A stretch of DNA of 28,956 bases from an uncultured Azospirillum sp. (GTDB lineage: Bacteria; Pseudomonadota; Alphaproteobacteria; RF32; CAG-239): positions 1 through 28,956 of the forward strand of contig CAZFRT010000003.1 in assembly GCA_964521455.1 (NCBI GenBank), read 5' to 3'. The notes under the pieces are model-generated. The model made no database searches. It worked only from the letters and a program-made list of their open reading frames with translations, and was not told the DNA's origin. Shown in pieces: positions 14,247 to 16,228 of the stretch; positions within the stretch are counted from its first letter, which is position 1, and the number at the start of each line of letters is the position of its first letter. The position numbers and the translations under genes were made by a program.

Positions 14247-16228
14247 TACAAAACCGCTTTAAGATTGAAAGTCCCTATGCTCCGGCTGGAGACCAACCTC
14301 AAGCCATCAAAGAGCTTTGCGAGGGAATAGAACGGGGCGAAAAGAACCAAGTATTGCTCGGCGTAACCGGAAGCGGTAAAACTTTTACTATGGCAAAAAT
14401 CATTGAACAAAGCCAACGTCCGGCTTTAATTATGGCTCCCAATAAGATTCTCGCTGCCCAATTATATTCGGAAATGAAAGAGTTTTTTCCCAATAATAAA
14501 GTGGAATATTTCGTTTCTTATTACGATTATTATCAACCGGAAGCCTACGTTCCCAAAACAGATACTTATATTGAAAAGGATTCGGCAATCAACGAACAAA
14601 TTGACCGAATGAGAAACTCTGCCACCCGCAGCATTTTGGAAAGCAACGACGTTATCATTATCGCCTCGGTTTCTTGCATTTATGGTTTAGGCGATGTAGA
14701 ATCCTACTCCAGCATGACCGTTCCTTTGAAGGTCGGAGATGAAATTGAACCCAAAGAAATCTACCGACGTCTTGCCGAACTCCAATATGAAAGGAATCAG
14801 CAAAACTTTGTCCGTAGCACCTTTCGCGTACAAGGAGATACATTGGATATTTTTCCTGCTCACTATGAAGACCGGGCATGGAGAATATCATTTTTCGGAG
14901 ATGAAATTGAAAGCATCCATGAATTTGACTCGTTAACCGGAAGAAAAACCGCAGAATTAAAAGAAATTGTCATCTATCCGGCCAACCATTATGTAACCCC
15001 TCGTCCGGCTCTTTCTCAAGCAATGATTCATATCAAAGAAGAACTGGCTGACAGATTAGAAGAGTTTAAAGCTCAAAACAAATTCCTTGAAGCCCAAAGA
15101 ATAGAACAAAGAACCCGATTCGATTTGGAAATGCTGGATACAACCGGACACTGCAAAGGAATTGAAAACTATTCAAGATATTTAACCGGACGTCCGGCCG
15201 GAGCCCCTCCTCCGACTTTATTTGAGTATCTGCCGCCCAACGCATTAATTTTCATTGATGAGAGCCACATTTCCATCCCTCAGATAGGGGGAATGTACCG
15301 CGGAGACTATAACCGTAAACATACGCTTTCTGAATACGGATTCCGTTTACCGTCTTGTGTGGATAACCGCCCGCTTAAATTTGATGAATGGAACCAAATG
15401 CGGGGACAAACAATTTTTGTTTCTGCCACTCCCGGAGATTGGGAATTGGAACAAAGCCATGGCGTCTTTACCGAACAAATTATCCGTCCGACCGGCTTGG
15501 CCGATCCAATATGCTTGGTTCGCCCTGTCGAAAACCAAATCGATGATTTAATGGAAGAATGTCGCAAAGTCATTGCCAAAGGAGAAAGAGTTCTGGTAAC
15601 CACCCTGACAAAGAAAATGGCTGAAGACTTAACTGAATACTTAAATGACAACGGCATTAAAGTTCGCTATCTGCATTCCGACATTGATACATTGGCAAGA
15701 ATAGAAATCATCCGCGATTTACGTCTGGGCGTGTTTGACGTACTTGTCGGCATTAACCTGCTAAGAGAAGGTCTGGATATTTAGGAATGTTCTTTGGTTG
15801 CTATTCTGGACGCTGATAAGGAAGGCTTTTTAAGGTCTAATCGCTCACTTATCCAGACTATCGGAAGAGCCGCTCGTAATGCGGAAGGTAAAGTGATTCT
15901 CTATGCTGATAAAATCACCGGCTCCATCAAACAAGCTCTGGATGAAACAAGCAGACGACGGGAAAAACAACTCAAGTTTAATGCCGAACACGGAATTATT
16001 CCGAAGACAATCAAGAAAAGCATTTCTTCCACCTTAAAGGAAATGACGGAAACAGATTTCAATAAAGATGACACGCCAAATCCGGAAGAAATTAAAAACA
16101 TCGATAAGAAACTGAAAGAATATAATAAGAAGATGAGAGAAGCCGCCCAAAATCTGGAGTTTGAAGAAGCCGTCATCTATCGGGATAAAATCAAAGAACT
16201 TGAACAATTGGCGATGAAATTTTCTTAA
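14243..16228 (+). pseudogene. uvrB: Excinuclease ABC subunit B interrupted by a single in-frame TAG (15782-15784); nonsense allele or sequencing artefact
   Basis: Walker [19 protein letters not shown] beta-hairpin, DESH, SATPG. Reading through the TAG gives [32 protein letters not shown] and a C-terminal UVR domain, all in one frame (661 codons). Confidence 0.9.

Follow-up and report, generated by a model that had tools for sequence, protein, structure and literature searches.

The uvrB gene of an uncultured gut alphaproteobacterium is interrupted in the deposited sequence by a single in-frame TAG, which takes the place of an otherwise invariant proline codon. We put a probability of roughly 0.55 on this stop being an error of sequence or assembly, and it is not a change of the genetic code. 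The stretch of DNA that was analysed, here called the window, makes up contig C3 in its entirety (28,956 nucleotides); it belongs to a metagenome-assembled genome, G000, whose relatives are uncultured Alphaproteobacteria with genomes of 1.2-1.9 Mb, found mainly in gut metagenomes. If the stop is an error, incorrect bases would have entered the short-read metagenome assembly in a poorly covered region, presumably because the reads at this site were few or of low quality, and the organism itself would have a normal uvrB with Pro514 and probably also Glu485.

uvrB occupies positions 14243-16228 of the forward strand (661 codons plus a stop, with one interruption). From the ATG at 14243 the frame runs through 513 codons to the TAG at 15782-15784, which is codon 514, and then through a further 147 open codons to the terminal stop at 16226-16228. 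When the TAG is read through as X, the product matches the UvrB equivalog models (NF003673 and TIGR00631) over their full length; for NF003673, residues 5-655 align with profile positions 1-652 of 653, at a score of 1074.7 bits where the curated cut-off is 743. The helicase N-terminal and UvrB-interaction domains lie in the upstream part, and the Pfam UvrB and UVR domains, together with the motif QTIGRAARN, in the downstream part. The deposited sequence nevertheless fails to hold motifs V and VI and the UVR domain in a single frame, as the TAG cuts helicase motif V and leaves motif VI and the UVR domain in the 147 codons behind it. A product truncated within motif V, which has neither motif VI nor the domain that binds UvrC, would be expected to be inactive.

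The interrupted site reads ATT CCN GAA in 11 relatives (CCG in seven, CCC in three and CCT in one), with CCG in both genomes of the same genus, and the column holds Pro in all 88 homologues that cover it; relative to CCG, the change is a tandem CC to TA at 15782-15783. The first-pass annotation had described a TAG at a conserved UvrB proline, at least two substitutions away from any Pro codon, with an intact frame downstream and an intact visible part of uvrC, and each of these observations is borne out here. The C-terminal part of uvrC (28465-28956, minus strand) is open and runs off the contig end, the remainder of the gene lies on contig C133, and there are no stops in uvrA or in either of the two uvrC parts. 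With regard to the origin of the change, we note that the 10 bp of the ancestral site, ATTCCGGAAT, form a perfect palindrome. Erosion of a restriction or methylation site was nonetheless rejected, with CCGG, TCCGGA and the full 10-mer ATTCCGGAAT all near their expected frequency in G000 and in the sister genome G001. A templated or template-switch origin was rejected as well, since the mutated 9-12-mers have no copy nearby in either direct or inverted orientation. As a separate observation, GCGC is nearly absent from both genomes (185 occurrences against 1812 expected in G000, and 32 against 1942 in G001), and GATC, GGCC and CTAG are also depleted in both, a pattern suggestive of restriction-modification pressure. 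G000 has more GCGC sites than G001, and this surplus might serve as a marker of contaminant contigs.

UvrB has 238 columns conserved at 95% or more, and the G000 sequence departs from them at two, where Pro514 has become a stop and Glu485 has become Ala. Codon 485 (GCA, 15695-15697; Glu in 87 of 88 homologues) differs by an A to C change at 15696, 86 nt upstream of the TAG, and the three aberrant bases at 15696, 15782 and 15783 thus fall within 88 nt. Another assembly, from the Logan collection, encodes a UvrB that is 99% identical (P0002) and carries both Pro514 and Glu485, as does every other relative compared with this gene, and the neighbouring genes have counterparts of approximately 99% identity in the same Logan-derived collection. 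These matches argue that the species normally carries an intact uvrB. The first-pass annotation had proposed a comparison with conspecific genomes; at the DNA level, two scans of metagenome contigs found nothing closer than 82%. The 513-aa and 144-aa products of the interrupted gene occur on no other contig in a search of some 15 billion proteins, and with truncated products unique to this contig and Pro514 in all relatives, independent records with the TAG were not encountered.

Including the stop, five amino-acid changes in the G000 uvrB are private to it: P514 to stop, E485A, K234R, D238E and V345I, of which the last three are conservative and spread over 840 nt. A neighbouring, faster-evolving gene has about three private changes in 1058 residues, and from its rate we would expect approximately 0.4 private changes in uvrB (an estimate) as compared to the five seen. 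Downstream of the TAG there is no private amino-acid change, and relative to its relatives the gene has no indels. At the nucleotide level, 133 differences in uvrB are unique to G000, 83% of them at third codon positions; the sister genomes G001 and G002 have 123 and 117 unique differences with the same codon-position profile, and to judge from these sequences normal purifying selection appears to have acted on uvrB along practically the entire branch.

The stop of a 1058-aa gene (11070-14246, plus strand) overlaps the uvrB start in an ATGA, and this gene in turn follows fliL, fliM and a flbB-like gene, an order conserved in G001, with whose contig C9 the uvrB region is collinear. We note in passing that a flagellar group (fliL, fliM and the flbB-like gene) and the 1058-aa protein together occupy 8272-14246 of the window, directly upstream of uvrB, and that the 1058-aa protein has no family match.

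A survey of mid-gene stops against G001 covered approximately 1.3 Mb of that genome, 926 genes and 301,589 aligned residues at a median identity of 91.7%, with shadow ORFs and N-terminal over-extensions set aside. Two of the 926 genes contain such stops, uvrB and a gene for an MltB-like lytic transglycosylase with SLT_2 and PG_binding_1 domains. In the latter (C83:1390-1395, minus strand, locus L180), G000 reads GAA TAG TAA CAG where both sister species read GAA TTG TAT CAG; the two stops replace Leu-Tyr, require two substitutions and are flanked by approximately 40 identical residues on each side. The reverse control, in which G001 (30 contigs) was searched for mid-gene stops, found none in 872 genes and 276,380 aligned residues. 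The ratio of unique nonsynonymous to synonymous differences is higher in G000 (0.28) than in its sisters (0.20 and 0.19). Diffuse, genome-wide sequencing error was considered as the source and rejected: it would give an estimated hundred or more stops, as compared to the three stop codons seen, so the raised ratio is a property of the lineage and not the product of miscalled bases.

The quality of the assembly bears directly on the matter. G000 comprises 1.52 Mb in 200 contigs (N50 11 kb), with 95% completeness and 4.8% contamination, and it contains 12 runs of N (11 gaps of 10 N and one of 100 N), which mark it as a scaffolded bin, presumably of short reads; most of its apparent frameshifts are scaffold gaps. 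At least one contig is chimeric, namely C83, which holds the MltB-like gene: here an N-terminal RF1 fragment that is 37% identical to the RF1 of G001, where other genes are at approximately 90%, meets the 3' end of this gene, to which it is unrelated and which lies on the other strand; the MltB-like stops lie approximately 740 nt from this junction. The foreign piece (C83:1-660, also L180) encodes a 100-residue RF1 fragment with a PCRF domain and ends where the 3' end of the MltB-like gene begins, and C83:1-632 has no blastn match to the three loci of G001 and G011 that were tested. Elsewhere in the bin, a gene on contig C147 that matches G002 C21:155870-157246 has 100% DNA identity over 327 codons against a genome average of approximately 86%, which points to bin contamination or a very recent transfer. 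Contig C3 itself is the third longest of the assembly (29 kb), contains no N and matches the gene order of G001 contig C9 from one end to the other.

What tilts us towards an artefact is the combination of a poor and partly chimeric assembly, a second multi-substitution stop near a chimeric junction, and an intact allele at 99% identity. The uvrB stop is private to this one record, both nonsense lesions of G000 need two substitutions while the better-assembled sister has none, and the three aberrant bases are clustered within a gene that shows no further decay. In bacterial assemblies, thin coverage and poor reads give rise to false internal stops (Cooley and Wright 2024, BMC Genomics, PMC11017572). 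At 10-fold coverage or below these number at least one per Mb, and poor read quality adds to internal stops especially; the yield of G000, at approximately one to two per Mb, is as the simulations predict for such coverage. The resemblance extends to an isolated stop in an otherwise intact, conserved gene of a fragmented and presumably thinly covered assembly and to a better sister assembly that has none, and the point of difference, that both lesions in G000 need two substitutions, is a detail outside the summary of that paper. Several considerations pull the other way. The length and collinearity of C3 argue against very thin coverage overall, and the base changes involved (C>T, C>A, A>C, and T>A twice) match no single known error signature. 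De Bruijn assemblers usually drop isolated double errors if a better-covered path exists. The excess of K234R, D238E and V345I over the neighbouring gene also fits relaxed constraint on a dead gene.

It is possible, although we hold it the less probable course of events, that the TAG is instead a real and very recent null allele, in which a tandem CC to TA mutation turned Pro514 into an amber codon in the strain that dominates the sample. E485A, 86 nt away, may then come from the same error-prone patch of synthesis, the product would end in motif V and lack motif VI and the UvrC-binding UVR domain, and the strain would be without nucleotide excision repair. The TAG bases are, after all, present in the deposited record, and on a long contig that is collinear with G001, and five private changes where approximately 0.4 are expected hint at relaxed constraint. 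Clustered multi-nucleotide mutations do occur in bacteria; for instance, 4.2% of de novo mutations in mutation-accumulation lines of Teredinibacter fell within 50 nt of another (PMC5833318). A null allele would nonetheless demand that both nonsense lesions of the genome be rare multi-base events, and it sits poorly with a gene that has neither an indel nor a private change downstream of the stop, with intact uvrA and uvrC, and with an allele found in no other assembly; the natural rate of such lesions in the genus also looks low, given the absence of any nonsense lesion in the 872 genes of G001. The first-pass annotation had left three options, a dinucleotide mutation, an artefact and readthrough. 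The last has become very unlikely and an artefact is favoured, and our tests do not separate artefact from mutation.

Decoding of the UAG, whether by a suppressor tRNA, by pyrrolysine, by near-cognate readthrough or by a lineage-wide reassignment, would allow full-length UvrB to be made, and a few observations speak for it: the downstream frame is intact, a full-length RF1 gene is missing from the assembly, and the incomplete tRNA set leaves room for a suppressor. We consider it very improbable. The marks of TAG reassignment that we looked for were numerous in-frame TAGs, depletion of TAG as a terminator, loss of RF1 and a tRNA with anticodon CUA. Of the long open frames in G000, 180 of 1005 (18%) terminate in TAG, as do 147 of 987 (15%) in G001, same-frame ORF pairs in G000 show no enrichment of TAG, and in-frame TAGs occur in only uvrB and one other of the 926 genes, on which grounds genome-wide recoding was rejected. 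The other gene moreover has a TAA directly after its TAG, and a TAA is read by no amber suppressor. A pyrrolysine system or suppressor tRNA was likewise dismissed: PylS was not found in G000, where the best match reaches 22.5 bits against a cut-off of 178.15, and none of the 26 tRNA genes found, in a set that is clearly incomplete, has the anticodon CUA. The RNA behind the uvrB TAG shows no stable fold (z = +1.08) and matches nothing in Rfam, which removes a recoding RNA structure from consideration. To our knowledge no suppressor inserts Pro at UAG, and Pro514 is invariant.

The missing release factor requires a word of its own. Native prfA, which encodes RF1, is absent from the G000 assembly, and we regard this as an apparent gap in the assembly and not a loss, because its expected place coincides precisely with the break where contig C100 ends and contig C180 starts, both of them syntenic with G001 in the parts that flank prfA. 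The assembly accordingly lends no support to a loss of RF1, the only RF1 fragment found in G000 being the foreign one on C83. A similar RF1 fragment in genome G011, another member of the family, is a contig-end cut, its contig C5 ending at approximately codon 101 of prfA. We also observed that a 96-nt stretch of the G001 prfA is 82% identical to a stretch of the RF2 gene (prfB) of G000, a likeness that may disturb assembly.

Narrower versions of a working gene fare no better. Codon 514 alone might be read through, by means of an unassembled suppressor tRNA or near-cognate decoding, to give a full-length UvrB with a residue other than Pro in motif V; this would explain the untouched look of the rest of uvrB, and we judge it marginally less credible even than UAG decoding at large. 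Alternatively, translation might stop at the TAG and restart at an in-frame TTG at 15794, the two fragments assembling into a working split UvrB. The CC to TA change does create an AGGA at 15783-15786, 7 nt before this TTG, and the putative residual frame (15794-16228, plus strand, 144 aa) holds motif VI, the UvrB C-terminal domain and the UVR domain. The cut, however, falls inside the conserved motif V and removes residues 514-517, and no relative is split at this position, the close matches being either full length or cut by contig ends, so that a functional split is the least likely of all the readings considered. Readthrough and a working split gene together account for a few per cent.

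Compared with known systems, the uvrB stop of G000 is unexceptional. Amber alleles that arise naturally are familiar, as in the rpoS amber of some E. coli K-12 stocks, and with these and other ordinary nonsense pseudogenes it shares a single strain-specific TAG in a gene otherwise under purifying selection; it differs in being a tandem two-base change at an invariant residue with no second record. With stop-to-sense recoding, such as pyrrolysine at UAG, it shares an in-frame TAG in a conserved gene of a gut bacterium, whereas in G000 TAG remains a common terminator and the two affected genes have it at unrelated residues (Pro and Leu). Irregular uvrB records were also seen elsewhere. In a related species, C-terminal UvrB ORFs start from the same Met (residue 437; 225 aa) in P0139-P0144, P0154, P0136 and P0228; they come from many assemblies, on contigs of up to 30 kb, and could represent a recurrent contig break or an upstream disruption in that species. 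Among members of the family, uvrB has one in-frame TGA in G017 (C59:54461-56422) and lies in two pieces approximately 300 nt apart in G019 (C116:36701-38926).

The uvrB TAG is thus ordinary; most likely it is not a real feature, and otherwise it is a commonplace fresh pseudogene, of little biological importance in either case. If it is an artefact, a lone stop at an invariant housekeeping residue in a fragmented, low-coverage bin should be taken as a sign of neither a pseudogene nor recoding, and terminator usage, a count of in-frame stops against a sister genome and a reverse control on that sister quickly tell such cases from codon reassignment. If it is real, the record would show one strain of an uncultured gut alphaproteobacterium that naturally lacks excision repair, sampled soon after a tandem-base mutation had arisen; gene loss in a gut bacterium with a small genome would ordinarily begin in this way.
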